Source: Candidatus Bathyarchaeota archaeon
GTDB lineage: Archaea; Thermoproteota; Bathyarchaeia; Bathyarchaeales; Bathycorpusculaceae
Reading direction: 5' to 3'
Assembly: GCA_963775465.1 (NCBI GenBank)
Contig: CAVZIW010000002.1
Span: forward strand, 32,001 to 96,000
DNA length: 64,000 nt
A program made the position numbers and the translations under genes. The notes below the pieces were generated by a model. The model made no database searches. It was not told the DNA's origin and saw nothing but the letters and a program-made list of their open reading frames with translations. Shown here piece after piece: positions 16,817 to 61,248 of this stretch. The stretch's first letter is position 1; each line of letters opens with the position of its first letter.

Positions 16817-18319
16817 TTGTCTAACCAAGCAAAGACTCGGACAGTAGAGGAAATTAATGCGAAAATTCGCAAGGGCGACGCTCAAATTTTAACCGTTGAG
16901 GAAATGAAGAAACTCGTGGACAGCAGTGGAGTAGAGGTTGCTTTTCGAGAAGTAGATGTAGTTACTACAGGTACATTTGGCGCTATGTGTAGTTCAGGCG
17001 CTGTGGTTAACGTAGGTCACTCTGATCCGCCGATAAAGATTGACAATGCTTGGATGAACAACGTGCCTGTATGCCACCCTGGTGCTGCAGTGGACTTATT
17101 CATTGGTGCCACAAACATGTCTGAGAAAATACCCTTCGAATATGGTGGTGGACATGTAATAGAAGATTTAGTCGCTGGAAACGAAATAGAACTCCGAGCA
17201 ACATCTTATGGGACTGATTGTTACCCTCGAACTTCTATTAAAACAACCTTGACAAAGGATGATTTGAACCAGTTTTATCTGATTAACTTCCGCAATGGAT
17301 ACCAACGTTACAACTGCGCGGTCAATGGAAGTGAGGAAATCATCTACACCTATATGAGTAAACTTTTGCCAAGGTTGCGAAACGCCACGTACTCTGGTGC
17401 GGGAGAACTCAACCCTTTGATGAATGACCCTGACTACGAAACCATGGGTATGGGTACTCGCATTTTCCTTGGAGGCGCTCAAGGTTACATTATTGGCGAA
17501 GGCACTCAGCATAGCCCTAAAAACCTAAGTGGAACTTTGATGGTCAAGGGAGATGCGAAAAAGATGTCGCCCGAGTTCTTGCAGGGTGCTGCCTTCACTG
17601 GGTATGGAACATCTTTGTATGTAGGTTTAGGTGTCCCGATTCCAATTTTAAACGAGGGATTGGCACGCAAGACTGCCATCCGTGACAGCGAAATTATGAC
17701 GGATATTGTTGATTACAGCGTACCCCGACGTGACCGCCCTAAGCTTGGTCAAGTCAGCTATGCAGAACTCAAATCAGGGTCCATTAACATTAATGGAAAG
17801 AAAATCCGCGTAAGCTCGCTTTCAAGTTTGAAAATGGCAAAGAAGGTTTCCCAAACGCTCAAAGAATGGATCGATGAAGGAAGCTTCTTTTTGACTTCAC
17901 CTGTGGAGCGTTTGCCAACGAACAGTACGTTTAAACCTATGCGTCAGACCGAGGAAATTCCTTTCGTGGTTAGCGTTATGCATCCAGCCATTACATGCAC
18001 TGAAAACGAAGAAATCCAAGTCATAGCCAAACTCATTGTTACAAATTCAGTTAACCACATAGTTGTTGTCGATGATGCAGGCAAACTTTTGGGTATCGTT
18101 ACTTCTTGGGACGTAACTAGAGCTATGGCGGAGGGCAAGAAAGCATTGGCTGACATAGAGACTCGCAGCGTTGTAACAGCCAAACCTGAAGAACCCCTTG
18201 AGATAGCCTCTAAACGCATGGCGCAGCACAACATCTCAGCTTTGCCTGTAATAAACATAGAAAGGAAGGTTCTTGGTATCGTTACAACTGAAGATGTGGC
18301 TAAATTGTTAGGAAGGTAA
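16817..18319 (+). CDS. L-aspartate semialdehyde sulfurtransferase (DUF39 + CBS pair; archaeal homocysteine biosynthesis)
   Basis: RTVEEINAKI...VDVVTTGTFGAMCSSGA, YGGGHVIEDLV, YGTDCYPR; two C-terminal CBS domains. Confidence 0.9.
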   Translation: MSNQAKTRTVEEINAKIRKGDAQILTVEEMKKLVDSSGVEVAFREVDVVTTGTFGAMCSSGAVVNVGHSDPPIKIDNAWMNNVPVCHPGAAVDLFIGATNMSEKIPFEYGGGHVIEDLVAGNEIELRATSYGTDCYPRTSIKTTLTKDDLNQFYLINFRNGYQRYNCAVNGSEEIIYTYMSKLLPRLRNATYSGAGELNPLMNDPDYETMGMGTRIFLGGAQGYIIGEGTQHSPKNLSGTLMVKGDAKKMSPEFLQGAAFTGYGTSLYVGLGVPIPILNEGLARKTAIRDSEIMTDIVDYSVPRRDRPKLGQVSYAELKSGSININGKKIRVSSLSSLKMAKKVSQTLKEWIDEGSFFLTSPVERLPTNSTFKPMRQTEEIPFVVSVMHPAITCTENEEIQVIAKLIVTNSVNHIVVVDDAGKLLGIVTSWDVTRAMAEGKKALADIETRSVVTAKPEEPLEIASKRMAQHNISALPVINIERKVLGIVTTEDVAKLLGR

Positions 18320-18323
18320 ACAT

Positions 18324-18752
18324 ATGGGAAGAATACTGATACGCTTTAACGAGGAACAAGTCTCAGAGCCGATTGCTTCACAAATTATAATTGAGCACAA
18401 AGTGCCGATGGCAATCTTAACAGCACACATTAACTCGAAGGGCGGGGAAATTCTTGCTGAAGTTCCCGATGACCAACTTCAAAAAGTCGTCGATGCATTC
18501 CGTAAACGGGGCGTTGCTATTATGGTGCCTAAACTCATCGAAGTAGATTCAGAAAAATGCTTCAGTTGCGGCAGTTGCGTAGCACTTTGCCCTGTTGAAG
18601 CAATTACCTTAGCACCGGATTCGACTGTACAGTTTGATAAAGTAAGATGTATGGGTAGCGCTTGCGGAATCTGCGTGGATGCTTGCCCTGCTCGAGCTAT
18701 TAAATCTGTCAAGCAAAACGGTGTCGACCTAATCAGGTTAAAGAAAAGTTGA
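18324..18752 (+). CDS. NIL-ferredoxin subunit of the homocysteine-synthesis system
   Basis: N-terminal NIL-like domain plus CxxCxxCxxxCP and a second Cys cluster; adjacent to DUF39-CBS. Confidence 0.85.
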   Translation: MGRILIRFNEEQVSEPIASQIIIEHKVPMAILTAHINSKGGEILAEVPDDQLQKVVDAFRKRGVAIMVPKLIEVDSEKCFSCGSCVALCPVEAITLAPDSTVQFDKVRCMGSACGICVDACPARAIKSVKQNGVDLIRLKKS

Positions 18753-19453
18753 CTGGCAACCTTCTGAGAGAAAATTTTCTTTTCAAAGAATCTCAATGCA
18801 CGATAATTTCTGATCAGGAAAAAGCCATTAGAATAGCTGTTGCCTCAATAAAGCAAAATTATCGAGAACTTGAACTCTACACGAGGGCAAACCCCAAATT
18901 TGTCCACGCTCTATCCCCTCTTCCTATACCTGATGAACCAGTAGTGGCCAAGCTGATGGCAGAGTTTGCCCAAAAGGCAGGTGTCGGTCCCATGGCTGCC
19001 GTAGCCGGAGCCATAGCAGATTTGGCTGTCAAAGACATGTTAAATGGAGGGTGCAAGGTAGCGGTGGTTGAGGATGGAGGCGAAATATCAGCCAACTCAA
19101 ACCAACCAATCGATATAGCAGTTGCTGCTGGTGAAGAGCCACTATCGAAACGTTTTGGATTTAGATTAACAGAGTTTCCGATAGGCGTTGCCACTAGCTC
19201 AGGACGCTTTAGTCACGCTATCAGTTTTGGGGATGCAGAGGCAGTGACGGTTTTTTGTAATAATGCAACTTTGGCAGATTCTGCAGCGACAGCAATCGGT
19301 AACACTGTGAAAGGCGAAGATGCCCACGTAGGAATTCAAGCAGGAATCGACAAAGCATTGTCAATTGAAGGTGTCCAAGGAGTATTCATCCTTTACAAAG
19401 GACAAGTTGGAACAGCTGGGAAAATTCCCCAAATAATAAAAATTCACGCTTAA
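18749..19453 (+). CDS. UPF0280/ApbE-like protein (COG2122; sulfur assimilation partner)
   Basis: GVGPMAAVAGAIAD, VEDGGEI, ATSSG, SFGDAEAVTV, ADSAATAIGN; 4-nt overlap with the upstream gene. Confidence 0.85.
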   Translation: MTGNLLRENFLFKESQCTIISDQEKAIRIAVASIKQNYRELELYTRANPKFVHALSPLPIPDEPVVAKLMAEFAQKAGVGPMAAVAGAIADLAVKDMLNGGCKVAVVEDGGEISANSNQPIDIAVAAGEEPLSKRFGFRLTEFPIGVATSSGRFSHAISFGDAEAVTVFCNNATLADSAATAIGNTVKGEDAHVGIQAGIDKALSIEGVQGVFILYKGQVGTAGKIPQIIKIHA

Positions 19454-19590
19454 GTTAGCTTTTCCTAATTTAGCCTCTTAAGCAAGGCAAGTAACTTGGC
19501 TAAGGCAACAACAAACGAAATTCCCATGAAACAAGAGTATTCTTGATTCCCACGAGCTCTGGAGCAGCGCCTTAAAGTTTACTTCAAATC

Positions 19591-19606
19591 CGAAACGCTT
19601 ATATTT
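19591..19606 (+). promoter_or_regulatory. BRE/TATA promoter of the aromatic operon leader
   Basis: CGAAACGC-TTATATTT about 35-40 nt upstream of the leader ATG at 19640. Confidence 0.6.
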
Positions 19607-19639
19607 TCAGGGACCTGACTGATTTGCAGGTTCGAAGCA

Positions 19640-19729
19640 ATGTCCAATCTAAGAAACACAGCGGTAAAAGCGGCTTCCCTGTTACACAGCTTCGAATACG
19701 GTTTTTATTATTTCGGTTATTTTACTTAA
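19640..19729 (+). CDS. Putative Phe/Tyr-sensing leader peptide, MSNLRNTAVKAASLLHSFEYGFYYFGYFT (29 aa)
   Basis: ATG...TAA ORF read directly from the sequence. Codons 18-28 contain 4 Phe and 4 Tyr. It ends 59 nt before the first gene of the aro/tyrA operon. Confidence 0.8.
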   Translation: MSNLRNTAVKAASLLHSFEYGFYYFGYFT

Positions 19730-19767
19730 GCCCAGAACTAAAAAATTTTTTAATAAAAGTTCTGGGC
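19730..19767 (+). terminator. Hairpin immediately after the leader stop (candidate attenuator)
   Basis: Perfect 10-bp inverted repeat GCCCAGAACT / AGTTCTGGGC; the loop contains a T6 tract (19746-19751). Confidence 0.6.
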
Positions 19768-19788
19768 AAAGCAAGGATGTAAAAACAA

Positions 19789-21033
19789 ATGGCAAAACTT
19801 TCCTCTAACCCAACTATAGTCGTTAAATTTGGCGGTTCTAGCCTATCTGACCACGAAAGACTCTTAAAAGCAGTTAGGGCAGTTGTAAACGAAACAAAAA
19901 AAGGCGTCAAAATTGCGGTAGTAGTTTCCGCCATGGGCAAAACCACCGATGTCCTAATGAAAACTGCCAAAAATACTTCAAACGGCAAACTAGCTAAGCA
20001 CGAGTTAGACGATATTCTTTCTATGGGGGAACGTACTAGTGTTCGCATCTTCGCCACCGCCCTTCGAAACAACGGTATTGACGCCTGCTATTTTGACCCC
20101 ATGGACAGCAAATGGCCTATCGTAACTGATGACTCATTTCAAAACGCTAATCCCATCGTCAAAGAATGTGAGAAGAACATCAAAGAATGCATACTTCCCC
20201 TTGTGAAGGCAGGTACTGTTCCGGTTATCGCTGGGTTTGTGGGTAAAACTAAAGATGGAAAAATCACAACACTTGGCAGAGGCGGCAGTGATACTTCCGC
20301 ATTCATTTTGGCTCAAGGTCTGGACGCCAATCAAATTGTCTTGGTCACAAACGCAGCTGGAATAATGTCAGGTGACCCCAAAATAATTGCTGCTCCTCAA
20401 CTTCTTCCAACAATTAACGTTACTACTCTTGTAGGATTGGCAGATTCAGGAGCCAAATTCATTCACAGTAAAGCTCTGAAGTATAAACCTAAAGATATAG
20501 ACATCAAAGTCATAAGTAATGCGCACGGCGATTTGAGTCATTCTGGGACAATCATTACGGGTGGATTAGCAACAGAACTTGACGCTGAAATTGCTCACCC
20601 AACCCAAGTTGTAGAAATTACTGTTATCGGCAATGGCTTGTCGGCAAACCCTGAAATAATCAATGCCTTGGTGGAAAAAGTTAGAGCTCACTCTATGCTA
20701 CTTGGAATGTCCATGAACACCAACTCAATCATCCTTTATGTTCCTCAAGAAAGGAGCATTGATACTCTCTTTAATCAAATTCACAAAATAACAATTGGTA
20801 ATAAGGAAACGATAGCAATGGCGGTCAAAAAGGATCTAGTGTTTATAAAAACCAGCGGAGTTGGTTTGGAGGAGACGCATGGAATAATAGGAAAAATCAG
20901 CGAGGATTTGCGTGTTAGCGGCATAAATATTTCTGGTATACTTACAATTACTTCTAGCATTCTTTTATTTGTGGATTGGAATGAAAAAGAGAAAGCATTA
21001 AAGTTAATTAAAAGCTCTCTCAAACAAAGTTAA
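19789..21033 (+). CDS. Second aspartate kinase, first gene of the aromatic operon
   Basis: VKFGGSS, VVVSAMGKTTD, SMGER, LGRGGSDTSA and degenerate ACT domains. Confidence 0.85.
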   Translation: MAKLSSNPTIVVKFGGSSLSDHERLLKAVRAVVNETKKGVKIAVVVSAMGKTTDVLMKTAKNTSNGKLAKHELDDILSMGERTSVRIFATALRNNGIDACYFDPMDSKWPIVTDDSFQNANPIVKECEKNIKECILPLVKAGTVPVIAGFVGKTKDGKITTLGRGGSDTSAFILAQGLDANQIVLVTNAAGIMSGDPKIIAAPQLLPTINVTTLVGLADSGAKFIHSKALKYKPKDIDIKVISNAHGDLSHSGTIITGGLATELDAEIAHPTQVVEITVIGNGLSANPEIINALVEKVRAHSMLLGMSMNTNSIILYVPQERSIDTLFNQIHKITIGNKETIAMAVKKDLVFIKTSGVGLEETHGIIGKISEDLRVSGINISGILTITSSILLFVDWNEKEKALKLIKSSLKQS

Positions 21034-21043
21034 GGTGGAAAGT

Positions 21044-21835
21044 ATGAACGAAGGTAAAACCCGCAGACTAAAAAGAATCATGCAAAAAGATAACCGTACA
21101 GTTATCGTGCCCATGGATCATGGTGTAACCATTGGACCAATTCAAGGCTTAACCGACATGCAAACCATAACTAACCAGCTAGTAAAAGGTGGAGTTGACG
21201 CTATACTTGTCCACAAAGGCATAGCTAAACGCGTTGACACAGCAAACGCAGGTTTAATCGTCATGCTTTCAGGGATGTCCAACCGTAGTCCGAACGTAAA
21301 CGGAAAAGTCCAAGTTTGTAGCGTGAAGGAAGCCATACACATCGGCGCAGATGCAGTAAGCGTTCATGTGAACATTGGAGCACAAGACGAAAATAAAATG
21401 CTTAAAAACTTAGGCAAAGTTTCTGAAGAATGCGACGAATTCGGTTTACCATTGTTAGCCATGATGTATCCGCGGGGTCCAAAAATCCAAAATGAACATG
21501 AACCAGAGGCAGTAGCGCATGCTGCAAGAATCGGTGCTGAACTTGGTGCAGACATCATCAAAACTAACTACACAGGTGACATAGAAACCTTCAAGGCAGT
21601 TGTTGAAAGCTGTCCTTCTCCAGTTGTAATAGCTGGAGGACCAAAATGTAAGTCTCCTGAAGAGATCCTTCAGACCACATGCGACGCAATAAAAGCTGGA
21701 GCTGCTGGTCTCTCGATAGGCAGAAACGTGTTTCAGTGTGAAAGCCCAACACAAATTTCCAAAGCCCTATGTGCTATAGTTCACCAAAACGCGAGCGTTG
21801 AGCAGACGCTAAAATTTCTCGGTGATAAGCGTTGA
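21044..21835 (+). CDS. aroA': 2-amino-3,7-dideoxy-D-threo-hept-6-ulosonate (ADH) synthase, class I aldolase
   Basis: IVPMDHG, AMMYPRG, GAELGADIIKTNY, GRNVFQ; next to DHQ synthase II. ATG 21044 follows SD AGGTGG. Confidence 0.9.
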   Translation: MNEGKTRRLKRIMQKDNRTVIVPMDHGVTIGPIQGLTDMQTITNQLVKGGVDAILVHKGIAKRVDTANAGLIVMLSGMSNRSPNVNGKVQVCSVKEAIHIGADAVSVHVNIGAQDENKMLKNLGKVSEECDEFGLPLLAMMYPRGPKIQNEHEPEAVAHAARIGAELGADIIKTNYTGDIETFKAVVESCPSPVVIAGGPKCKSPEEILQTTCDAIKAGAAGLSIGRNVFQCESPTQISKALCAIVHQNASVEQTLKFLGDKR

Positions 21836-22852
21836 AGGAACTCTGGGTAGAAATCACACAAGATCAAAAAGGAGGAATGCAGTCTCTAATTACTCAATAC
21901 TGCGATGCAGTCGTCGAAGGGGACCAAGCTACTTTTTTAGCAAACAAAGAAAGCCTCCGAGTAATCTCTCTCTCAGCTAATAATTTGGAAAAAATCAAAT
22001 CAGGCAGTGAAATTGTAAGAATTTGCATTGAGGATAAAGCAACAGAAGACCTGATCGTGAAAGCTGCAGACTTAGGTGCGAGATACTTAATCATCAGTTG
22101 TGCTAATTGGCGTGTAATTCCTCTTGAAAATCTTATCGCAAGAATAAAAAGTAAGAGCAAATTAATAGCCGAAGTAACCAACGCCGAAGAAGCAAAAGTG
22201 GCAGTGGATACTCTTGAATTGGGAACTAACGGCGTTTTGCTTAGAACTTCAGATCCCGAAGAACTAAAAAAAACCATTGCTGTAGTTAAGCCCGATGCCT
22301 TGAATCTTGATATGGCTGAGGCCAAAATTATTACAACTAAACCCATCAGTAATGGAGCACGAGTTTGTGTGGATACCTGCGATATGATGAGCGCAGGTGA
22401 AGGGATGCTTGTCGGTAGCCAAAGTGCGGGTTTGTTTTTGGTAGAAGCGGAGGTTCATGAAAATCCATACGTAGCTTCCCGACCCTTCAGGGTGAATGCA
22501 GGTTCGTTATCTATGTACACATTGGGCAATTTGGAAACTACACGTTACCTTCAAGAGTTCAAAGCTGGAGATGAAGTTGTAGTAGTTAATCGTGAAGGCA
22601 AAACCCGAAAAACCAACGTTGGTAGAATAAAGATAGAAATTAGACCGCTTATCCTTGTTGAAGCCCAAGTGAACGGCAAAATCATAAAAACTATCCTGCA
22701 AAATGCCGAAACAATCCGAGTTGTTACACCCAAAGACTCTAAACCCGTGACAGACCTAAAACCGGGTGATGAAGTCGTCGTGCATCTCAGCCGCGAAGGG
22801 AGGAAGACACTTCGGCATATCAGTGCCTAAAGAAACGGTGATTGAGAAGTGA
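21832..22852 (+). CDS. aroB': 3-dehydroquinate synthase II, with an apparent 1-nt frameshift near the 3' end
   Basis: W.VIPLENLIA, RVCVDTC, PYVASRPFRVNAG, LQNAETIR. The conserved tail GRHFG...ETVIEK* is in a shifted frame after GGG 22798-22800, and its stop overlaps the aroD GTG. Confidence 0.9.
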
Positions 22853-23532
22853 GTGTGAGAATCTGTGTTTCGATTCTCCCAAAAGAAATGACAGAAGCCC
22901 TAAATCTAATTGAAAAGGCAGAGAAGGCTCATTCTGACTTTATCGAAATTCGACTCGACTGCTTTGAAGAATCGCGAAACCTCAAAGATCTCAAAGAAAG
23001 CACAAGAATTCCCTTGATTGCCACAAATAAACTTGTAAACGAAAAAGGCTTTTTTGCAGGAACAGAGGCTGAACGTCAGCAAACCCTTCTAAATGCCGCC
23101 GTTAACGGTTTTGAATACATTGATGTTGATTCTTCAAGCTCAAAATGTGCTGAAACCATACGTCAACTCAGAGAATTTGGAGCAAAACCAATTGTTTCAT
23201 ACCACAATTATAATGGCGTTATAGATACTTTCAAAATGGAAAAGATTCTTAACGAACATATCGCTCAAGGCGCGGCAGTTTGCAAAATCGTTACTACCGC
23301 AAAACAGTTTGACGATAATTTACCTGTTTTAAGTTTTGTTTCTTTTGCTTCAGCTAAGTCTAAGCTGGTTTGTTTCTGCATGGGTGAAAAAGGAAAAATC
23401 TCTAGACTTCTTTCGCCCATGTTTGGTGCTTACTTTACATTTGCTTCGCTGGAAGGTGATTCAACCGCTCCGGGGCAAATGAGTATTGCCGAAATGCGTA
23501 AAGCCTACGCTTTATTGGGAGTTAAGCAATGA
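22849..23532 (+). CDS. aroD: Type I 3-dehydroquinate dehydratase
   Basis: IEIRLD, IVSYHN, CKIVT, FCMGEKGKISR, TAPGQ. Confidence 0.92.
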   Translation: MSVRICVSILPKEMTEALNLIEKAEKAHSDFIEIRLDCFEESRNLKDLKESTRIPLIATNKLVNEKGFFAGTEAERQQTLLNAAVNGFEYIDVDSSSSKCAETIRQLREFGAKPIVSYHNYNGVIDTFKMEKILNEHIAQGAAVCKIVTTAKQFDDNLPVLSFVSFASAKSKLVCFCMGEKGKISRLLSPMFGAYFTFASLEGDSTAPGQMSIAEMRKAYALLGVKQ

Positions 23533-24386
23533 ATATTTCGGGAAAAACACGCATCTGCGGAGTCATAGGTGACCCCATAGAACACAGCTTAAGCCCTCTA
23601 ATTCACAATGCTGCATTTCAGGAACTTAAGATAAATTATGTATATTTAGCTTTCAAAGTCAAGCCAGCTGAAGTTGCCAACGCAGTGAACGGTATGCGCG
23701 CCTTAAACATTCGCGGTTTGAACGTTACAATGCCCCATAAGAGCGCTGTAGTAAAACATTTAGATAGAGTTGATTTGTCAGCGCAAATCGTAAACTCTGT
23801 TAACACAATCTTGAATAAAGAAAATCTTCTTTTCGGGTTTAACACTGATGGTTTGGGTGCCCTTAGAGCTTTAAAAGAAAACGGAGTTGAACTTAAAGGT
23901 AGAAAAGTTCTTTTGTTAGGGGCTGGAGGCGCTTCACGAGCTATTGCTTACGCATTGGCAAAAGAAGCTGATGAAATTGCCGTTTTGAATCGCACAGTTA
24001 AACCTGCCCAAGCCTTGGCTAAAGTTTTGGAGAGAGCACTTACCAAAAAAGTCACCGTGGGTACTCTTTCACATAGCGATATAGCTCTTAATCTTAGAGA
24101 TTCAGATATTCTTGTTAACGCAACATCCATGGGTATGAAACCTCACTTCGACGATAGTCCCGTGCCTTCTAAATTGTTAAGACCTGATTTGGCAGTTATG
24201 GATATTGTTTACAATCCACTTGAAACAAAGCTTGTAAAAGAAGCAAAGATTGCTGGAGCTAAAGTAATTAATGGTGTGGAAATGCTCATTTATCAAGGGG
24301 CCGCATCACTTGAGCTTTGGACAGGTAAATCTGCTCCTGTTGAAGCAATGCGACAAGCATCGTTAAAACACTTAATGAAGGTATAA
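23529..24386 (+). CDS. aroE: Shikimate dehydrogenase
   Basis: GDPIEHSLSP, NVTMPHK, NTDG, GAGGA, DIVYNP, MLIYQG. Confidence 0.95.
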   Translation: MNISGKTRICGVIGDPIEHSLSPLIHNAAFQELKINYVYLAFKVKPAEVANAVNGMRALNIRGLNVTMPHKSAVVKHLDRVDLSAQIVNSVNTILNKENLLFGFNTDGLGALRALKENGVELKGRKVLLLGAGGASRAIAYALAKEADEIAVLNRTVKPAQALAKVLERALTKKVTVGTLSHSDIALNLRDSDILVNATSMGMKPHFDDSPVPSKLLRPDLAVMDIVYNPLETKLVKEAKIAGAKVINGVEMLIYQGAASLELWTGKSAPVEAMRQASLKHLMKV

Positions 24387-24389
24387 CCT

Positions 24390-25262
24390 GTGTCGGGAAA
24401 AGCTACGGCGTTAGTTCATGGGGCTGCAACAATCGTCAATGCGATTGCGTTAGGAAAGGGTGCAGCGTTTGGGGTTGATTTGTGGACTAAGGCAGAAGTC
24501 AAACTAACTGATGAGCCAGGTGTTATTTTGGCAGAGATTGTGTCTGACCATAAAGAAAGCACGCTTTTGATCGAAAAAACGGCTGTAAGGGTTTTGCAGC
24601 ATTTTAGTTTGGAGAAGAGTTTTGGTGTAAAAGTAAAAACTCAATCGAATATCCCCATTGCACGTGGACTAAAGAGTAGTAGTGCAGCTGCAAATGCAAC
24701 AGCTCTTGCCGTCGTTGCGGCTTTGGAAAAACTTCGAGATGACTTAGAAATTGTTAAAATCGGTGTGGAAGCGGCTTTTGCCGCAAAAGTCACCGTAACA
24801 GGAGCGTTTGATGATGCCTGTGCTTCATACTTTGGTGGGGTTGTAATAACGGATAACTTGAACAAAAAAATAATCAAGCAGATGCAGCTGACGGAAGATT
24901 TTTCTGTACTTTTCCATGTGCCCCCCCAGAAAGTTTACACTGCTGACTCAAACTTGAATCGACTTCAAACTGTCAAACCGCTTGTGGAAATGGCGTTCAA
25001 GTCCGCTTTGGAAGGTAAAGTTTGGGAAGCCCTAACTCTTAATGGATTAGTTTACTCCTCAGCCTCCAATCTAAACCCAGCAATCGCTATAGACGCTTTA
25101 GCAGCTGGAGCTGTGGCGGCTGGTCTTTGTGGCAAAGGACCTGCTGTTACCTCTGTGGTTTCAAAGGATAAAGTTGATTCGGTAAAAGCTGCCTTGAAAA
25201 ACTATGAAGGCGAAATCTTGCAGACAAAATTGAACCGTGAAAAAGCAAAGGTGATAACATAA
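24390..25262 (+). CDS. aroK: Archaeal (GHMP-family) shikimate kinase
   Basis: GAATIVNAIALGKGAAFG, GLKSSSA, VTGAFDDA, GLCGKGP. Confidence 0.92.
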   Translation: MSGKATALVHGAATIVNAIALGKGAAFGVDLWTKAEVKLTDEPGVILAEIVSDHKESTLLIEKTAVRVLQHFSLEKSFGVKVKTQSNIPIARGLKSSSAAANATALAVVAALEKLRDDLEIVKIGVEAAFAAKVTVTGAFDDACASYFGGVVITDNLNKKIIKQMQLTEDFSVLFHVPPQKVYTADSNLNRLQTVKPLVEMAFKSALEGKVWEALTLNGLVYSSASNLNPAIAIDALAAGAVAAGLCGKGPAVTSVVSKDKVDSVKAALKNYEGEILQTKLNREKAKVIT

Positions 25263-26560
25263 CGGCAACAGTCACGATCAGAAAAGCTCGAAGACTCAAT
25301 GGACAAATTTGCGCACCTTCCTCTAAATCATACACACAAAGAATGACTATAGCTGCTGCGCTTTGCTATGGGGTTTCTAAGGTTTCTGATCCCTTATTGT
25401 CCGAGGACACCGAAGCCACACTCCGAGCCATAACCGCTTTAGGTGCAAAAGTGAAAACCTCAGAGGGTTGTTGGACTATAGAGGGTGCAAAGACTCTTAA
25501 AGGCTCAAATGAGCCAATTGACTGTGGAGAATCAGGCACAACGCTTCGTTTCATGATTCCAATAGCTGCGTTAGCCAATGGCTCTTCGACTTTGGTTTTT
25601 AGAGGTTCTCTCGATAAACGCCCAGTGGAACCCTTGCTTACAAGCCTCAAAGAACTCGGAGCAAAAGCGGATGCTGGAAATCTGGATGCCAAAGACGCTG
25701 TTTTTGTGGAGGGTGGCGGAATTGTTGGTGGGGAAACTTACATTGCTGGGGATGTGAGTTCTCAGTTTATTTCTGGTTTGATGTTTGCGTGCCCACGAGC
25801 TGAAGTGGACACAGAAATAATGTTGACTTCACCTTTAGAGTCTGCAGACTATGTCAAGATGACAGAGGCTGTTCTATCTAATCACGGAATCAAAGTGCCA
25901 GCACACGAAAAACACATACATATCCCCGCAAAACAAACCTACCTGCCTTCCGATGGTATAGTTCCGGGCGATTTCTCTTCAGCTGCTTTCCTTCTTGCCG
26001 CTGCAGCCATAACAGAATCTAGAATTCAAGTAAATAACCTCAACTACGGCAGAATCCAGGGAGATCAAGCAATTATTGGGGTCCTAAAGCAAATGGGTGT
26101 TGAGGGGAAAGTGTGTGAGGAAAGCGTTGAGATTGAAGGCTCAGGCTATCTGCTTAAACCTGTAGAAGTTGATGCTAAGAATATTCCTGACCTTGTACCT
26201 GTTATTGCTGTCTTGGCATGTTATGCGCAAGGGCTTACTCACATTTTTGGAGCTCATAGACTTCGTTTAAAAGAGTCTAACCGCCTTGAGTCGCTATACC
26301 TTGAGTTAACAAAAATGGGTGCACAAATCACCCTCAACGATGATGGTTTACTTATACAGGGTGGCTCACTTCTGCATGGTGCAACAATAGACCCACATAA
26401 TGACCACCGAATTGCAATGGCTTGTGCAGTTGCTGCTTTACGTGCAGAAGGAGAAACAACGATTCAAAATGCTGACTGTGTCAGAAAGTCTTATCCACAA
26501 TTCTTCACTCATCTAAAGCAAATAGGAGTAGATTTAGTTGGCAGGAAATTCGATAGGTAA
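25259..26560 (+). CDS. aroA: EPSP synthase (3-phosphoshikimate 1-carboxyvinyltransferase)
   Basis: The conserved GQICAPSSKSYTQR lies upstream of the ORF-track start (25343); also GESGTTLR, SSQFISG, RLKESNR, DHRIAM. Probable ATA start at 25259. Confidence 0.93.
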   Translation: MTATVTIRKARRLNGQICAPSSKSYTQRMTIAAALCYGVSKVSDPLLSEDTEATLRAITALGAKVKTSEGCWTIEGAKTLKGSNEPIDCGESGTTLRFMIPIAALANGSSTLVFRGSLDKRPVEPLLTSLKELGAKADAGNLDAKDAVFVEGGGIVGGETYIAGDVSSQFISGLMFACPRAEVDTEIMLTSPLESADYVKMTEAVLSNHGIKVPAHEKHIHIPAKQTYLPSDGIVPGDFSSAAFLLAAAAITESRIQVNNLNYGRIQGDQAIIGVLKQMGVEGKVCEESVEIEGSGYLLKPVEVDAKNIPDLVPVIAVLACYAQGLTHIFGAHRLRLKESNRLESLYLELTKMGAQITLNDDGLLIQGGSLLHGATIDPHNDHRIAMACAVAALRAEGETTIQNADCVRKSYPQFFTHLKQIGVDLVGRKFDR

Positions 26561-27641
26561 AGAATTTGTTGTTACCACGTTTGGCGAAAGCCACGGAAGC
26601 GTTATCGGCGTTATTGTGGACGGTTGCCCCGCAGGATTACCGCTAGTCGAAGCTGATTTTCAAGAGGAGCTCGATCGTAGGATTCCGGCTGAAACAAAAA
26701 TTGTTTCTGCACGTATCGAGAAAGATATTGCCAAAATATTCAGCGGTGTTTTCAATGGTCTCACAACTGGTGCCCCCATCACTTTGATGGTTGAGAATAA
26801 AGACGTGAAATCTGGTGATTACGAAGAAATCAAGGATTTGCCAAGACCTGGTCAAGCGGATTACCCTGCACGAATTAAATACGGCGGCTTTAACGATTAC
26901 AGAGGAGGCGGGCGTTTCTCTGGACGCATCACTGTTGCGTTAATCATGGCTGGCACAATAGCCAAGAAGCTACTCGGTCGATACAATATCGATGTTTTGG
27001 CCTACACACTGGCGATTGGTGACATTAAATCTGAAAAACATTTTAGTTCCGCAGAGATCAGGAAAAACCGGGATGCTGCTGCTACGAGGTGCCCCGATTT
27101 AATTTGTGCTGATAAGATGGAGCAAGCTATCGTGGAAGCTAAAAAAGAAGGTGACAGCTTGGGTGGTATAGTCGAATGTGTCGCAGTTAACATGCCTGTG
27201 GGAATTGGCGAGCCGTTGTTTGATACACTAGACGGTGACTTGGCTAAAGTGTTGTTCGCCGTTCCAGCCGTGAAAGGCGTTGAATTCGGTATCGGTTTTG
27301 CGTCGGCTAATCTTCGGGGTTCAGAAAACAATGATGCTTACAAATCAAGTAATGGTAAGGTTACAACTTTGACTGAGAATGCTGGTGGCATCTTGGGCGG
27401 TTTATCCAGTGGCATGCCAATACTGATAAGGGTAGCGATAAAACCTACTCCTTCTATCGCCAAGGAGCAGAAGACTGTTAACGTTTGTACTTTGGAGAAT
27501 GCTGCCTTAAGTGTTAAGGGAAGACATGACCCTTGTATAGTTCCAAAAGCTGTACCTGCTATCGAAGCAGCAGTTGCTATAACTTTAGCTGATCATATGA
27601 TTCGCTCAGGCTATATGCCGCAAGTTATAAAGGAGCACTAA
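26538..27641 (+). CDS. aroC: Chorismate synthase
   Basis: TFGESHG, RPGQAD, RGGGRFSGR, KPTPSI, GRHDPC. Confidence 0.96.
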   Translation: MAGNSIGKEFVVTTFGESHGSVIGVIVDGCPAGLPLVEADFQEELDRRIPAETKIVSARIEKDIAKIFSGVFNGLTTGAPITLMVENKDVKSGDYEEIKDLPRPGQADYPARIKYGGFNDYRGGGRFSGRITVALIMAGTIAKKLLGRYNIDVLAYTLAIGDIKSEKHFSSAEIRKNRDAAATRCPDLICADKMEQAIVEAKKEGDSLGGIVECVAVNMPVGIGEPLFDTLDGDLAKVLFAVPAVKGVEFGIGFASANLRGSENNDAYKSSNGKVTTLTENAGGILGGLSSGMPILIRVAIKPTPSIAKEQKTVNVCTLENAALSVKGRHDPCIVPKAVPAIEAAVAITLADHMIRSGYMPQVIKEH

Positions 27642-27644
27642 ACC

Positions 27645-27905
27645 TTGGATGATCTCCACGTGTTTCGCCGAAGAATAGATGAAATAGACGACCAAATCTT
27701 AAACGCTCTATGTGAAAGAGCCAAGATATGCAAAGCCATCGGTGCAGCCAAGAAAAAGAAGGGAAAACCCGTTCGCGATCTCTCAAGAGAAAATCAGTTA
27801 TTCAAACGAATAGCTGCAAAGGGAATTGAATTCGGTCTTGATGCAAGTCAACTTAAAGCGGTATACCGCGAAATAGTTAATATGTGCAGTTCAGTTCAAG
27901 AATAA
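27645..27905 (+). CDS. Chorismate mutase (AroQ type)
   Basis: RRRIDEID.QIL..L.ER...IG..K......D..RE pattern; operon context. Confidence 0.88.
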   Translation: MDDLHVFRRRIDEIDDQILNALCERAKICKAIGAAKKKKGKPVRDLSRENQLFKRIAAKGIEFGLDASQLKAVYREIVNMCSSVQE

Positions 27906-27923
27906 GGAACTCTCAACGGAGAG

Positions 27924-29012
27924 TTGTTGTCTATGCTGTACGAGATCAATGAGAAAGCCCTAAAATTGGAAAGTGAAGGAAAAAAAATTATTCGGTTAAA
28001 CTTAGGTGACCCAGACTTGGCTACGCCCCCCGAAATAGTGGAAGCAGCTTTTGCTTCTATGAAAGCGGGCAAAACTAAGTACGCTTCATCTTATGGTGAG
28101 CTAAAGCTAAGGGAGAAAATCGCTGAGGTACATGGCGTTAAAGCAGAAAACGTTGTTGTTACCCCAGGTTCAAAATGGGCAGTATTCGCTACAATGTTTT
28201 TGATATTGAAGAATGGCGGCAACGTTATTATTCCAACGCCTTATTGGACAGCTTATGATTTGATCGCAAAAAGTTTTGGTGCCAAAACGAAACTGTTGCG
28301 AACAGAAATGGAAGATGGCTGGAAAGTTGATATAGACAAACTTGAGGCGTTGATTGATAAAGAAACAAAAATGATTATTATCAATAATCCGAACAACCCC
28401 ACAAGCAAAGCAATGGATAATGAAACTCTCGATTGTATAGTCGAGTTAGCCAATAAGAAAGGCGTAACAATCCTTTCTGATGAGGTTTATGGTGCAATTA
28501 GCTTTGTTAAAACTAAAAGCATCCTGGACTATGATGCTGAATGTAAGCATATCCTGTCAAACGGGTTCTCAAAAACTTTCACCATGACCGGTTGGCGCAT
28601 CGGCTATTTAATAGCCAATAAAATGTTTGTCGACAAAATAACCAAACTCAACCAAATTACCATAAATAACGTCCCGGTTTTTATCCAAGATGCAGCATTG
28701 AAAGGCTTAGAGCTAAGCAAACAAATAGCCTCCGCAATTAAAGCCAAATATAAACAACGCGCAGACCTTGCAAGTACCAAACTTTCTGCAGCAGGTTTCA
28801 AATTTACTAAACCCGATGCACCTTTCTATGTGTTCCCTAAACTTGACGGTTTAGATTCAGAGAAATTCACCCTCAATCTGCTTGAAAGAGGCGTCGCTGT
28901 GGCACCAGGGACATCATTTGGGGATTACCGCGAACACTTCCGCATCAGCTTAACGGCTCCAGACGGACAAATAGGAGACGGTCTGGATAAAATCTGTGAG
29001 GCAGTTCAATGA
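27924..29012 (+). CDS. Class I PLP aminotransferase (probable aromatic amino-acid aminotransferase)
   Basis: LGDPD, NNPNNPT, SDEVY, FSKTFTMTGWRIG. Confidence 0.88.
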   Translation: MLSMLYEINEKALKLESEGKKIIRLNLGDPDLATPPEIVEAAFASMKAGKTKYASSYGELKLREKIAEVHGVKAENVVVTPGSKWAVFATMFLILKNGGNVIIPTPYWTAYDLIAKSFGAKTKLLRTEMEDGWKVDIDKLEALIDKETKMIIINNPNNPTSKAMDNETLDCIVELANKKGVTILSDEVYGAISFVKTKSILDYDAECKHILSNGFSKTFTMTGWRIGYLIANKMFVDKITKLNQITINNVPVFIQDAALKGLELSKQIASAIKAKYKQRADLASTKLSAAGFKFTKPDAPFYVFPKLDGLDSEKFTLNLLERGVAVAPGTSFGDYREHFRISLTAPDGQIGDGLDKICEAVQ

Positions 29013-29881
29013 GAATTGCCGTAATCGGCGCGGGAAAAATGGGCGTTTGGTTCGCCAAGTTTTTTCTCGCTAAAGATTACGATGTTGTTTTAGCTGACCG
29101 GAAAAAGGAGAAACTTGAAAACCTCAAAGACGTTTTGGTGGACTTAACTACTAACTTCCAAGAGGCTGTTTTAGACGCTGACCAAATTTTTCTTTGCGTT
29201 TCCATAGATGCGATTGAGGAGGTAGTTAAAACAATCAGCCCTGTTCTGCGTGAAGGACAAGTAATTATGGACATCGCCTCAATCAAAGAAGCCCCAGTCA
29301 GAACTATGCATCAATACATAAAGACAGCAACTGTTTTGGGTACCCACCCTGTTTTTGGTCCAGGTAGTCATGGTCTAAAAAACAAAGCGTACGTGCTTAC
29401 ACCAACTACTCCTCAGGAGCAGGCGTTTGCGGAAAAATTCAAGGTGTGGCTTGAACAAGAAAAAGCAAATGTGTTTGTCATGACTCCAAAAAAGCATGAC
29501 GAATTGATGTCTGTTGTGTTAGGATTGCCGCATTTTGTTGGTTTAGTTGCTTGTGAAACGCTGTTAGAGCAGAAGAATTTGCTTGAAACCAAAAAAGTCG
29601 CGGGAACAACCTATCGTATGCTGTTCACATTGGCGGAGTCAACGGCGCTGGAAACCCCTGACCTCTTCGCAAACTTGCAAGCCAATTTGCCTGAACTGGG
29701 AAGAATCGAAGACTTATTTATGGTTAAAGCTCAAGAATGGGTTAGCTTAATAAAGAAGAAAGATTCAGATGCAATGATTCAACGTATGGAACAAATTAAG
29801 AAAAAGCTAAAGGAAAATGATAGCGACTTTGCCAAATCCTACGAAAACATGTATAAAATGCTGGAATCCACTGAAAAATAA
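29009..29881 (+). CDS. tyrA: Prephenate dehydrogenase
   Basis: IGAGKMG, DIASIK, HPVFGP, HDELMSVVLGLPH. Confidence 0.92.
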   Translation: MRIAVIGAGKMGVWFAKFFLAKDYDVVLADRKKEKLENLKDVLVDLTTNFQEAVLDADQIFLCVSIDAIEEVVKTISPVLREGQVIMDIASIKEAPVRTMHQYIKTATVLGTHPVFGPGSHGLKNKAYVLTPTTPQEQAFAEKFKVWLEQEKANVFVMTPKKHDELMSVVLGLPHFVGLVACETLLEQKNLLETKKVAGTTYRMLFTLAESTALETPDLFANLQANLPELGRIEDLFMVKAQEWVSLIKKKDSDAMIQRMEQIKKKLKENDSDFAKSYENMYKMLESTEK

Positions 29882-31959: not shown

Positions 31960-32781
31960 TTATGGCAAAATAGCTTTAGGGTAAGAACCTAAGATCTTCA
32001 CGAAAACCGCATATTTCTCCAATGCTATAAGAGCTTCGGCGCATTTTTGTTCGGTTCGATGTCCATCGAAGTCAAGGTAGAAGTTGTATTCCCAGGCGGT
32101 TTTTTTGGTTGGGCGGGATTCGATGCGTGTTAAGTTGATTTTGCGTTTGGCAAATTCACCTAGTGCATTGTATAGTGCGCCAGGTTCATGTTTGGCTGAG
32201 AAGATAATGCTGGTCTTATCTTTGCCTGTGCGTGCTGAATCTTCATGGGAGAGAACAAAGAAACGAGTAAAATTGTCTTTGTTGTCAGCTATATCTCTCT
32301 CCAGGATCTCCATGTCGTTTAACTCAGCTGCATGCTGGCTTGCGATAGCTGCTGCGTTTGTGATTTTTTGTTCTTTAATGATTTTTACACTGCCTGCGGT
32401 GTCATAAGCGGGGATTATTTCCCACTTCATCTTTTCCAGATATTTGCGACATTGCGCCAAAGCTTGAGGATGAGAATACACAGCTTTGATTTGCTCCATT
32501 GTTGTGCCTGGGTTAACGATGAGGCAATGCGCAATTCTGACGATGACTTCACCACATACTTTGAGATCGTAATTGAAAAAAAGGTCATAGTTTTGATTAA
32601 TGCTGCCCTCTATTGAGTTCTCCACGGGCACAACTCCCGCCGCAACTTGACCTTGCTTAACTGTTTCGAAAACTTCTAAAAAATCTCGGCAGGGCTTAGC
32701 TTCCACTTTAGAGCCGAAAAACTGAAAAACTGCAGATTCACTGTAGGCGCCAGGTTCTCCTTGGAAGGCTACGATTTTCAC
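31960..32781 (-). CDS. pheA: Prephenate dehydratase (PDT + ACT)
   Basis: FQGEPGAYSE, VPVENSIEG, SHPQALAQC, NFTRF, IESRP. Confidence 0.95.
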   Translation of the reverse strand: MKIVAFQGEPGAYSESAVFQFFGSKVEAKPCRDFLEVFETVKQGQVAAGVVPVENSIEGSINQNYDLFFNYDLKVCGEVIVRIAHCLIVNPGTTMEQIKAVYSHPQALAQCRKYLEKMKWEIIPAYDTAGSVKIIKEQKITNAAAIASQHAAELNDMEILERDIADNKDNFTRFFVLSHEDSARTGKDKTSIIFSAKHEPGALYNALGEFAKRKINLTRIESRPTKKTAWEYNFYLDFDGHRTEQKCAEALIALEKYAVFVKILGSYPKAILP

Positions 32782-37205: not shown

Positions 37206-37718
37206 TTATTCGTCAATTCTTATTGATTTGGCACCCCGTGCCAGCGCTGTTATTCCTGTTCTTGCTAATTCAATGATTCCGTATGCTTTCATTAGGTTAA
37301 GGAACGCATCAATTTTGTCAGGGGTTCCTGTGATTTCAACTGTTAAGCTATCTGTAGAGACATCGATGATTCTGCCGCGGAACACTTCGACACAGTTTAT
37401 TATATCGCTACGTTCTTTGCTGCTTGGTACGTTGACTTTTACTAGTGATAGTTCACGCATGACAAAGTTGCCCTGTGAAAGTTCGTCAATTGTTAAGACA
37501 TCGATTTGTTTGGCGACTTGTTTGATTACTTGATCGATGGTTTTTTCGTCTTCATTAACAGTTATAGTCATTCGCGCGATGTCCTTTTGTTGGGTGGGAC
37601 CGACAGTGATGGATTCGATGTTAAAGTTTCGGCGTCGGAACAGGTTGGCTATTGTGTGGAGGACTCCTGGTTTGTTTTCGACTAGAACGGAGATAACTTT
37701 GGTTTTTCCGGTTTCCAT
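37206..37718 (-). CDS. ilvN: Acetolactate synthase small (regulatory) subunit
   Basis: ISVLVENKPGVL, FRRRNFNIESITVG, ELARTG. Confidence 0.93.
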   Translation of the reverse strand: METGKTKVISVLVENKPGVLHTIANLFRRRNFNIESITVGPTQQKDIARMTITVNEDEKTIDQVIKQVAKQIDVLTIDELSQGNFVMRELSLVKVNVPSSKERSDIINCVEVFRGRIIDVSTDSLTVEITGTPDKIDAFLNLMKAYGIIELARTGITALARGAKSIRIDE

Positions 37719-39424
37719 TAGTAGTCACCTTTTTGTTGGGGTAATCCGCATCCTGGTGGCACAAAGGGAACGACGTCGTTCTCGGAGCCAATGGGTACGT
37801 CGATTACCGTTGTTACCTTACTAGTCAGTGCTGTATTAACAGCTTTGTGGAATTCCTCGATTGAAGTTGCTCTTATTCCATGTGCTCCGTAAGCTTCTGC
37901 TAGCTTAACAAAGTCAGGTGTTTTGCCCAAATTAACTGCCATATAGCGGCGATTGTAGAGCATTCGCTGCCACTGTGCCACCATACCAAGCACAGAGTTG
38001 TTTAGCAATATGACTATAACAGGAATGTTTTCGTTAACGCTACAGGCTAACTCTTGTTCCGACATTATGAAGCTGCCGTCTCCTGCAATATCCACAACCA
38101 CTCGATCTGGGCATGCTACTTTGGCTCCGATGGCTGCAGGGAAGCCAAATCCCATCGTGCCTAGTCCACCTGAACTAATGAAAGTTCGAGGCATCAGACT
38201 TTTGAAGTATAATGCCGACCACATTTGGTTCTGTCCGACTTCTGTGGTGACAATGGCACTTTCAGGTAGTAGCTTGCGCAGTTCGCTTAGTAATGCTTTG
38301 GGTACCAGATCCCGGGGTAAGTCCTTGATTAATGGACTCAATTGTTCTTTTGCTTCTTTAACTCGTTTAGTCCATGCCTTGCCTTCGCCTTTTTTCAGTC
38401 TCTCATTGACTGCTGCAATTAGCATCTTCATTGTTATTTTGGCGTCTGCGACAATGGGTAAATCCACTTCAATGTTTTTGTTGATTTCAGCGTTATCTAT
38501 GTCTATTTGGATTTTTTTAGCGTTCTGCGCGAACGTGTCAAGGTTTGCGGTAGCGCGGTCAGAGAATCTTGTACCAATGGCCAACAACAGGTCTGCTTCA
38601 CTTAACAGTCTATTTGCCGCGGGGTTTCCGTGCATACCTATGCTTCCCAAAGATAGTGGGTGAGTTTCTGGAAATGCTCCTTTACCCATGAAGGTAGTTG
38701 CGACTGGAGCCATCAATAAATCTGACATTGCAACAATTTCGTCTGATGCCCCTGAAATTATCGCTCCGCCTCCTGCTAGTATTATTGGGCGTTCAGCTTT
38801 GGCTAGTAATTCAGCGGCTTTGCTTATTCTGTTTGGGCTGGGATGGGTGATTAGTTTGTATCCTCTCAAATCTATTTTATCTGTCAATTCAATGTCAGCA
38901 GTTCCTGCTTGAACGTTCTTTGGCAAATCAATAAGAACTGGTCCTGGTCTGCCTGTGGTAGCCAAGTGGAAAGCGTTGTTAACCATGACTGGGATTTCCT
39001 CGACGCTTCGAGGTTGATAACTATATTTAGTAACAGCTGTGACAATGCCGATTATATCAGATTCTTGGAAGGCGTCTCTTCCAATCATGTAGCTAGTATT
39101 TGCTCCTGTGCTAGGGACTTGGCCTGTTAGGGCAATTATCGGAGAAGAATCCATGTAGGCATTGGCTATACCTGTGACTAGATTGGTGGCTCCTGGACCA
39201 CTAGTTGCCATGCAAACGCCTGCGCGTCCGCTGGCTCTTGCATAACCTTCTGCTTCATGAGCGGCGCATTGCTCGTGTCGAGCAAGAATATGACGGATTT
39301 TTTTGTTGCCGCATAATGCATCGTATACTGGGAGTATGGCTCCACCTAAGATGCCAAAGATTGTATCAACCTTTTGTCTTTCAAGGGATTTTAAGAGTGC
39401 TTGTGCACCAGACATTTTTGTCAT
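37718..39424 (-). CDS. ilvB: Acetolactate synthase large subunit
   Basis: RHEQ.A.H.A.GYAR, TSGPGATN, SGGLGTMGFG, GDGSF, LGMVAQWQ. Confidence 0.95.
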   Translation of the reverse strand: MTKMSGAQALLKSLERQKVDTIFGILGGAILPVYDALCGNKKIRHILARHEQCAAHEAEGYARASGRAGVCMATSGPGATNLVTGIANAYMDSSPIIALTGQVPSTGANTSYMIGRDAFQESDIIGIVTAVTKYSYQPRSVEEIPVMVNNAFHLATTGRPGPVLIDLPKNVQAGTADIELTDKIDLRGYKLITHPSPNRISKAAELLAKAERPIILAGGGAIISGASDEIVAMSDLLMAPVATTFMGKGAFPETHPLSLGSIGMHGNPAANRLLSEADLLLAIGTRFSDRATANLDTFAQNAKKIQIDIDNAEINKNIEVDLPIVADAKITMKMLIAAVNERLKKGEGKAWTKRVKEAKEQLSPLIKDLPRDLVPKALLSELRKLLPESAIVTTEVGQNQMWSALYFKSLMPRTFISSGGLGTMGFGFPAAIGAKVACPDRVVVDIAGDGSFIMSEQELACSVNENIPVIVILLNNSVLGMVAQWQRMLYNRRYMAVNLGKTPDFVKLAEAYGAHGIRATSIEEFHKAVNTALTSKVTTVIDVPIGSENDVVPFVPPGCGLPQQKGDY

Positions 39425-39525
39425 TTCATTTTTGTCTCCTGTTCGTTGAATTGTTTATACTCTCGTCTCAAAAAATTATGTGCGAGAATTTTTCCGTGGC
39501 TTTTTTAGAGGTTAACCTGGGTGCA

Positions 39526-39576
39526 TCAGAGAATTTGTACCCGACGATCCCAGCTATCGAGGTGACGATCCCTCAT
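39526..39576 (-). CDS. Putative branched-chain-amino-acid leader peptide, MRDRHLDSWDRRVQIL (alternative ATG at 39582)
   Basis: SD GAGGT, then ATG AAT ATG...GTA CAA ATT CTC TGA; ends 101 nt upstream of ilvB. Confidence 0.5.
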   Translation of the reverse strand: MRDRHLDSWDRRVQIL

Positions 39577-39762
39577 ATTCATACCTCTTTAAACTCCGCG
39601 TACTTTTAAAGTTACATCCGTGAGAAAATAAAAAGTTTGTGGTGTTTGCTAAAATAATACGTAGCAATCCGCAAACAACAATCAGGACTAAAGTATCTCA
39701 TTTATCGAGTAAGTTAACTTTTGACCTGATTTTACAGTTCAATCAAAGCGATGAATTTAGAA

Positions 39763-61140: not shown

Positions 61141-61248
61141 GCCGGGGTAGCCTAGCCTGGCTAGGGCGCCAGACTCATAATCTGGAGAGTCACAGGGCCA
61201 AGCGCCTTAACCCAGAAGTCGCGGGCTCGAATCCCGCCCCCGGCACCA
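61141..61248 (+). tRNA. tRNA with CAT anticodon (elongator Met-like), 30-nt intron at position 45/46, encoded CCA
   Basis: Acceptor GCCGGGG/CCCCGGC-ACCA, anticodon arm CCAGA-CTCATAA-TCTGG, T arm GCGGG-CTCGAAT-CCCGC. Removing 61188-61217 restores the variable loop AGGTC. Confidence 0.92.

Follow-up and report, generated by a model that had tools for sequence, protein, structure and literature searches.

A Phe/Tyr-rich upstream open reading frame abutting a conserved hairpin: a candidate leader of the aromatic operon in Bathyarchaeia

Introduction

Amino-acid sensing by leader peptides is a textbook bacterial mechanism that relies on coupled transcription and translation. Here we describe a candidate counterpart in an archaeon, a 29-codon upstream open reading frame (uORF; positions 19640–19729) rich in Phe and Tyr codons that precedes the aspartate kinase (AK) gene at the head of an aromatic-amino-acid (aro) operon. 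It lies in a 64,000-nucleotide stretch of contig CAVZIW010000002.1 from a Candidatus Bathyarchaeota archaeon (hereafter the window; positions refer to this stretch and, unless stated otherwise, to its plus strand). As in pheL-pheA, pheM-pheST and trpL, a short ORF at the 5′ end carries a run of codons for the end product of the operon, the remainder of its peptide is not conserved, and RNA helices overlap or abut the ORF. Unlike these bacterial attenuators, the leader described here is archaeal, mixes Phe and Tyr codons, shows neither a hairpin-plus-U-run terminator nor, in the window's family, a conserved antiterminator/terminator pair, and sets its hairpin at the base directly after the stop codon. 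Its first gene encodes an AK that feeds the archaeal aspartate-semialdehyde/6-deoxy-5-ketofructose-1-phosphate (ASA/DKFP) route, and it matches no Rfam leader.

Translational attenuation of ermC and cat offers a second likeness, since a ribosome stalled on the leader there remodels a hairpin beside the downstream ribosome-binding site (RBS), as we propose for the window leader; the stall signal in ermC and cat is a drug together with the nascent peptide, whereas that of the window leader is presumed to be tRNA charging. Closer in some respects are the leaderless polycysteine short ORFs of mycobacteria, which are bacterial, Cys-sensing and experimentally tested, and for which the preprint describing them (Canestrari et al., bioRxiv 10.1101/834739) gives a model in which an mRNA structure conceals the RBS of the next gene unless a stalled ribosome blocks that structure. 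The mycobacterial ORFs share with our locus a sensory short ORF placed at the very start of the operon mRNA, a run of cognate codons and no need for a terminator. They differ from it in that RBS masking at our locus is a weak, composition-level prediction and in that the short 5′ untranslated region (UTR) of the window leader pairs with the ORF itself. An earlier, sequence-only reading of the locus had remarked that leader-peptide control is not established in archaea; in agreement, our search of the full-text literature, with subscription journals mostly outside it, returned no archaeal leader-peptide attenuator among the papers listed, and a 2021 review of archaeal coupling (PMC8116511) contains none of the terms "attenuation", "leader peptide" and "polarity".

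Results

A Phe/Tyr codon run abuts a hairpin at the head of the aromatic operon

The uORF opens with ATG and closes with TAA (19727–19729), and its aromatic codons are gathered at one end: F18, Y20, F22, Y23, Y24, F25, Y27 and F28 make up 8 of the 11 codons from 18 to 28 (19691–19723, the proposed stall sites), with zero aromatic codons in the rest of the ORF and Trp absent throughout. At the base right after the TAA begins a perfect 10-bp stem, helix P2 (19730–19767; arms 19730–19739 and 19758–19767), whose 18-nt loop holds A6T6, the T6 being at 19746–19751. There follow GGATG (19775–19779; GGGTG in relatives), an aligned block that we infer to be a Shine-Dalgarno (SD)-like sequence of the AK gene, and the AK gene itself (ATG at 19789; 19789–21033; NCBIfam, Pfam). 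Upstream of the uORF, a sequence resembling the transcription factor B recognition element, CCGAAACGC, and a TATA box, TTATATTTT, together span 19590–19607 (TATA, 19599–19607), and this promoter block, CCGAAAyGCTTATATTTT, is kept at equal distance from the uORF ATG in the same-genus loci compared. Judging from the usual archaeal spacing between TATA box and transcript start, transcription would begin near 19629–19631 and leave a 5′ UTR of ~10 nt. The predicted mRNA 5′ end, the conserved alignment block GGTTCGAAGC (19629–19638), forms the 5′ strand of a second helix, P1, and the 3′ strand of P1, GCTTCGAA (19689–19696), was placed by RNAalifold and pair counts on codons Ser17-Phe18-Glu19. The leader RNA from 19629 to 19800 folds at −38.2 kcal/mol (z = −2.15, 200 shuffles). 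The TATA box, the 29 codons, the eight Phe/Tyr codons, the lack of Trp and the 10-bp stem at the first base past the stop had all been claimed by the sequence-only reading, and all are present in the sequence and its ORF list.

AK heads a compact row of twelve genes with intergenic gaps of −23 to +80 nt, which continues from ADH synthase to prephenate dehydrogenase at 21035–29881. As assigned by NCBIfam and Pfam, genes 2–7 are ADH synthase, DHQ synthase II, aroD, aroE, archaeal shikimate kinase and EPSP synthase, and genes 8–12 are chorismate synthase, chorismate mutase, an aminotransferase, prephenate dehydrogenase and a GATase. ADH synthase and DHQ synthase II constitute the archaeal aspartate-semialdehyde route into the shikimate pathway. 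The operon is without trp genes, and its content thus matches the earlier description of an operon reaching to chorismate mutase and tyrA with no trp genes.

The leader is conserved before AK across the order

All 24 same-genus genomes yielded an AK orthologue, as did three genomes from two other families. At 27 of 30 loci, an ATG-initiated uORF with an F/Y-rich C-terminus ends 45–77 nt before AK, and the three loci without it carry a paralogous AK (34–36% identity) in another gene context. An order-wide search with ADH synthase and wider flanks returned 32 loci. Among the 19 of these with an AK of the leader clade, 18 carry the uORF (two of them with AK divergent from ADH synthase), and the lone exception has an AK that looks fragmented; at the 13 ADH-synthase loci without an adjacent AK, the filter detected no F/Y uORF. 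It is therefore AK, and not aroA′, that the leader accompanies, so that the association with AK/aroA′ operons put forward in the sequence-only reading stands as regards orthologous AK/aro operons and gives way as regards aroA′. Contigs from metagenome-assembled genomes (MAGs) added 28 Bathyarchaeia loci with an AK of at least 43% identity and nine with the paralogue (33–37%); counting the three paralogous loci above, the leader precedes AK at 0 of 12.

Dropping identical upstream regions reduced 82 loci to 66 distinct ones, 62 of which carry an ATG uORF of 23–29 codons; the remaining four (AK 51–54% identical) carry another leader type with few aromatic codons. All 62 share one layout: a promoter, a uORF with a variable N-terminus and an F/Y-rich C-terminus, a stop-adjacent hairpin, an SD and an AK heading an aro operon. 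In the last 13 codons of these uORFs, Phe accounts for 27.4% and Tyr for 31.5% (59% together) and Trp for 1.7%, the remainder of the ORF holding 4.3% Phe plus Tyr, and aromatic residues peak at codons −2, −3, −5, −6 and −7 from the stop. Both synonymous codons of each residue are in use (TTT 138, TTC 107, TAT 180, TAC 82) and F and Y swap freely; the N-terminal part differs between loci in both its sequence and its length, yet start, frame and stop persist. Furthermore, G+C-richer families of unrelated nucleotide sequence still encode F/Y runs, via TTC and TAC. The other two frames are open within the uORF bounds in only 19 and 5 of the 62 loci, a comparison in which frame 0 is open by construction because uORFs were picked by score; the independent points are the start, fixed beside the conserved 5′ block, and the stop, fixed beside the hairpin. 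From uORF stop to AK start, the distance is 46–74 nt in 61 of 62 loci and is mostly hairpin. Gene order differs by family (AK-DHQS II-aroD; AK-asd-ADH synthase; AK-DHQS II-aroD divergent from ADH synthase), and despite this the leader-AK pair heads the aro operon wherever checked. The sequence-only reading had looked to relatives for an F/Y-rich uORF with synonymous variation and a covarying stem, and had counted the lack of such a uORF as a point that would speak against it; the uORF of 62 of 66 loci, and a hairpin with wobble and compensatory changes, are conserved before orthologous operons.

The layout is single-copy in the genome and is not chance

The layout is not a product of chance. 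Of 1388 upstream regions in the window's genome that were screened with the finder also applied to relatives, two contained a short ORF with at least 7 aromatic residues in its last 14 codons, the window locus among them. The other high scorer (contig C12, near 131437–131600, plus strand), an F-rich ORF within T-rich low-complexity sequence, lies 130 nt ahead of a 715-residue regulator-like gene and is probably a chance hit. A stricter scan of 2836 intergenic short ORFs, asking for enrichment of any one amino acid together with a stop-adjacent stem, left the window locus alone. The leader motifs are single-copy in the genome, two further TTCGAAGC-ATG sites having been rejected as leaders. At Rfam E-values up to 10, the region 18500–21000 gave only three chance-level matches, elsewhere than at the leader, and no leader or riboswitch family; at the gathering score, the whole window gave only a tRNA and no leader family, and a tRNA scan found nothing near the leader locus. 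The Rfam tRNA (57.8 bits, 105 nt, 61141–61245, plus strand) probably contains an intron, and ARAGORN reports no tRNA in the window.

A Trp-rich leader was sought upstream of trpE in the same genome and none was found; a W-rich ORF on contig 3, considered as a Trp leader, was set aside in that it precedes a regulator-like gene and not trp genes. The trpE frame itself (contig C8, ~87650–88300, outside the window) runs through its first ~180 codons without an ATG, GTG or TTG start, and just 5′ of it a short ATG ORF in another frame enters A-runs, an arrangement that could reflect an assembly frameshift or an unusual start.

Two conserved helices frame the codon run

A stable hairpin starts −3 to +5 nt relative to the base after the stop in 61 of the 62 loci. 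The stop-adjacent hairpin has a median of −18.7 kcal/mol and a z below −2 against shuffles in 59 of 62. Its sequences are wholly different between families (GCCCAGAAC-type, GGGGAAGGGG-type and GGAGAAACC-type) and its position against the stop is kept; with arms unrelated between families, it is therefore structure, and not sequence, that is conserved. In an alignment of the 43 loci of the window's family, RNAalifold recovers both P1 and P2 unaided. P1 pairs GGTTCGAAGC, located 1–6 nt before the uORF ATG (1 nt in the window), with the AGC-TTC-GA codons that open the F/Y run, and seven of its pairs are kept in 41–43 of 43 loci; the variation among them includes G-U pairs and a single double change, C-G to U-A. 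Taking P1 and P2 together, 94.2% of 804 alignment cells pair compared to 24–50% in slid controls; double changes occur at five pairs (14 cells), and the covariation score was reached by 0 of 500 shuffles. Changes on one side of a pair are mostly A-U to G-U, which fits an RNA of the plus strand. Given the relatedness of the sequences and the high conservation of both helices, we take this pair evidence as supportive and not decisive.

Within a second genus (9 loci), P2 is kept and the 5′ UTR (AACTGGGY) before the uORF ATG is complementary to the 5′ arm of P2, with 88.9% of cells paired compared to 1–50% in slid controls and one double change. Such pairing would exclude the P2 hairpin, although this mutually exclusive arrangement is weakly supported at n = 9.

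The same leader type extends to other orders

In a class-wide sample of 201 genomes, 66, from many families, contain the AK clade (E at most 1e-85). Among the 39 loci examined, a set that partly overlaps the MAG-contig set and was not de-duplicated against it, 20 carry the same leader type as the window locus, and 18 of these have a hairpin next to the stop at −15 kcal/mol or better. A further locus is borderline and another is cut by a contig end.

A probable Phe/Tyr sensor with a possible translational output

The conserved anatomy, codon bias and pair of helices point to what is probably a translated leader that senses Phe and Tyr in one manner or another. The F/Y run reaches the last codons, the hairpin begins at the stop and a further 10–25 nt with the SD lead to AK; the position of a ribosome on the uORF would therefore decide how the downstream RNA behaves. 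For the output step, we tentatively favor release of the AK RBS, rather than transcript read-through, with a confidence that falls a little short of an even chance. Briefly, transcription would start ~10 nt before the uORF ATG, and a ribosome would pass ~16 unconstrained codons before meeting the Phe/Tyr run, which reaches to 1–2 codons before the stop. With charged tRNA-Phe and tRNA-Tyr ample, the ribosome would finish and depart, and the leader would fold into P1 and P2. P1 would tie the mRNA 5′ end to the first F/Y codons, near the uORF start, and P2 would set the U-rich F/Y tract beside the purine-rich AK RBS, keeping AK initiation low. Were Phe or Tyr scarce, the ribosome would stall on the tract and hold it single-stranded, along with the base of P2 at the last stall sites; a ribosome at upstream F/Y codons would leave P2 free, and one at the last codons or the stop would have to open the P2 base. 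The AK RBS would then stand open, and AK would be translated, followed via coupling by the tightly packed downstream genes.

Predicted accessibilities are in part consistent with such a release. Over the 62 loci, accessibility of the AK RBS is predicted at 0.386 for the native leader and 0.612 with the tract masked, the native value being lower in 57 of 62; when tracts of other composition are substituted, it is 0.46 and 0.475, with the native value lower in 41 and 45 of 62. In the window, both the minimum free energy and the centroid structures pair the GGU-UUU-UAU codons with the SD-AUG spacer of AK, across the base of P2. The lack of terminator-like sites around the leader (19300–20000) also speaks for this output, and the mycobacterial short ORFs provide a bacterial precedent for it.

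Several results weigh against the proposed sensor and its translational output. Shuffling the same tract gives an RBS accessibility of 0.41, with the native value lower in only 31 of 62 loci, and since the shuffled tract does as well, the predicted masking rests on composition and not on register. RNAalifold found no register-conserved pairing of the F/Y tract with the AK RBS, a cruder state model of a stalled versus a terminating ribosome gave no systematic difference in SD accessibility within the window's family, and GC-rich families show a different predicted switch, in which masking of the 5′ arm lets the CUCC-like end of the 3′ arm pair with the SD. In the window's family, AGC-TTC-GA and TTT-TAT-TAT hardly vary at their synonymous sites, which implies an RNA-level constraint beyond codon identity. 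Moreover, the loci are related, so that the counts overstate independence. RNA contigs from two metatranscriptome runs cover only AK coding sequence at 19809–20369 and a short piece near 21533–21570; such contigs cannot show starts, ends or levels and are therefore uninformative on the leader. Lastly, 17 of the 39 class-level loci carry a second uORF type with only 2–4 aromatic codons and without a stop-adjacent hairpin. Examples of its conserved core are G-D-H-L-F-G-D-G-V-Y, G-G-H-L-Y-G-G-H and M-G-G-H-L-Y-W-H, the first 24 bases are invariant in one genus, and the four odd loci of the order-level set (4 of 66) belong to it. This second type may reflect a peptide- or RNA-specific mechanism.

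Other explanations of the leader

The same Phe/Tyr codon sensor could have a transcriptional output, with the position of the ribosome relative to the polymerase or to P2 deciding whether transcription stops at an oligo-T. The stop could be intrinsic or depend on the archaeal cleavage factor aCPSF1/FttA, a factor that could also give polarity on untranslated RNA, and the whole would be an archaeal form of attenuation. We regard this output as unlikely but as one to be reckoned with. In the interval from uORF stop to AK, 34 of 62 loci have a T-run of at least five and 49 of 62 one of at least four; in the window's family, the start of the run is fixed at +15 to +19 nt past the stop. Across this genome, runs of T5 or longer occur within 60 nt downstream of 33.7% of genes compared to 10.3% within genes and 17.3% upstream of them, the pattern that a terminator role of oligo-T would predict. 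By geometry, a ribosome at the stop codon would abut a polymerase standing on the T-run, and P1, being beside the uORF start, would let only the first ribosome sense, in keeping with a single decision made during transcription; the mutually exclusive pairing of the 5′ UTR with the P2 5′ arm in one genus (n = 9) also counts in favor of a transcriptional output. Against these points, the T-run is not universal, 13 of 62 loci being without a T4+ run. In the window it sits inside the P2 loop and not past the hairpin, so that P2 would be unable to act on a polymerase at the T-run; only some other families have a T-run downstream of the hairpin. A scan of 19300–20000 returned 0 bacterial-type terminators. 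For the window's family, RNAalifold gives two non-competing helices and masking of the 5′ arm yields no conserved alternative of the antiterminator/terminator kind. The simplest coupling logic, in which a close ribosome suppresses termination, would also turn the operon off under starvation. The sequence-only reading had seen in this layout the hallmark of bacterial attenuators and had proposed that stalling controls read-through into the operon. The likeness does not extend to a hairpin-plus-U-run terminator or to conserved 2:3 / 3:4 alternatives, and conservation supports the ribosome-read Phe/Tyr sensor in that proposal; for lack of a terminator, of a T-run outside the loop and of conserved exclusive structures, read-through as its output is not borne out.

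Stalling could alternatively be imposed by the nascent peptide and not by hungry codons, in response to free Phe/Tyr or another ligand, much as TnaC is an arrest peptide responding to Trp. We consider an arrest peptide improbable at the window locus. A motif of S-F-[D/E/G]-Y plus aromatic residues does recur across families with different nucleotide sequence, and the conserved G-[G/D]-H-[L/I]-[F/Y]-[G/W] core with few aromatic codons at the 17 other-order loci suggests selection on the peptide. Yet the order of F and Y varies freely in the window's family, and the S-F-D/E codons coincide with P1, so that their invariance is explained at the RNA level; moreover, a biosynthetic operon induced by its end product would be regulated in the wrong direction, unless arrest were repressive.

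A slightly poorer candidate still is an incidental ORF within an untranslated, structured leader RNA (P1, U-rich tract, P2) that is bound by a protein or small molecule, or within a DNA operator whose two blocks, each holding TTCGA, would be repressor half-sites over the transcription start. Either version would account for the near-invariant nucleotides, synonymous sites included (GGTTCGAAGC, AGCTTCGA, TTTTATTAT and GCCCAG/CTGGGC); the RNA version draws on the support for two helices, and the operator version places a half-site at the usual position for an archaeal repressor. However, length changes come in whole codons and leave start, frame and stop intact in 62 of 62 loci, the other frames being mostly closed, and families with unrelated, G+C-richer sequence keep both the F/Y runs and a stop that always abuts the hairpin. 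The G-U variants fit a plus-strand RNA and not a DNA palindrome, and no Rfam family match speaks for an untranslated RNA. A functional aromatic-rich micropeptide, such as a membrane or enzyme-associated subunit, is highly improbable: its C-terminal aromatic block is conserved class-wide, but its N-terminal two thirds are free of constraint on either sequence or length, most positions tolerate exchanges among F, Y, H and G, and the ORF is tied to a stop-adjacent hairpin and to one gene clade only, with no second copy in the genome.

A second candidate leader and neighboring genes

The window holds a further candidate leader system, upstream of ilvB (37718–39424, minus strand). The 340-nt gap at 39425–39762 (minus strand) contains a TATA-like block and a short ORF, and the operon behind it reads ilvB-ilvN-leuC-leuD-leuB-leuA-like-pheA. 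The ORF starts M-(N-M)-R-D-R-H-L and ends in R-R-V plus 2–3 mostly Leu/Ile/Val/Phe codons; it is present at 23 of 23 same-genus ilvB loci, where its N-terminal part is near-invariant in nucleotides, and a related M/V-R-D-x-R start was seen by eye at 6 of 7 ilvB loci of other families. The pheA gene (prephenate dehydratase; 31960–32781, minus strand), which lies outside the aro operon, is the last gene of this convergent branched-chain operon and overlaps the stop of the preceding isopropylmalate-synthase-like gene. Directly 5′ of the aro leader promoter lies a homocysteine-biosynthesis cluster (16817–19453, plus strand) encoding HcyBio with CBS domains, a NIL-ferredoxin protein and a PRK04334-like protein, which we take to be another consumer of aspartate semialdehyde.

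Discussion

A conserved, codon-specific leader of this kind is a mutable test object for the interplay of archaeal ribosome, RNA structure and RNA polymerase. It is also a marker of the AK dedicated to the archaeal aromatic pathway and a regulatory part that might be put to use in archaeal genetics, and it indicates that a bacterial-type terminator is not required for such leaders to function, or at any rate to persist.

A broader interpretation, which we think rather unlikely but worth stating, is that Bathyarchaeia possess an ancient, class-wide, ribosome-based aromatic gauge that needs no bacterial terminator and acts by way of the hairpin abutting the leader's stop, existing in a codon-run form (as in the window) and possibly, in other orders, in an arrest-peptide form (the G-G-H-L-Y-W type), and that, taken with the M-R-D-R leader before ilvB, control by leader ORFs is general in archaea. 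If this were true, leader-ORF control of amino-acid operons would be a general archaeal strategy and not a bacterial invention.

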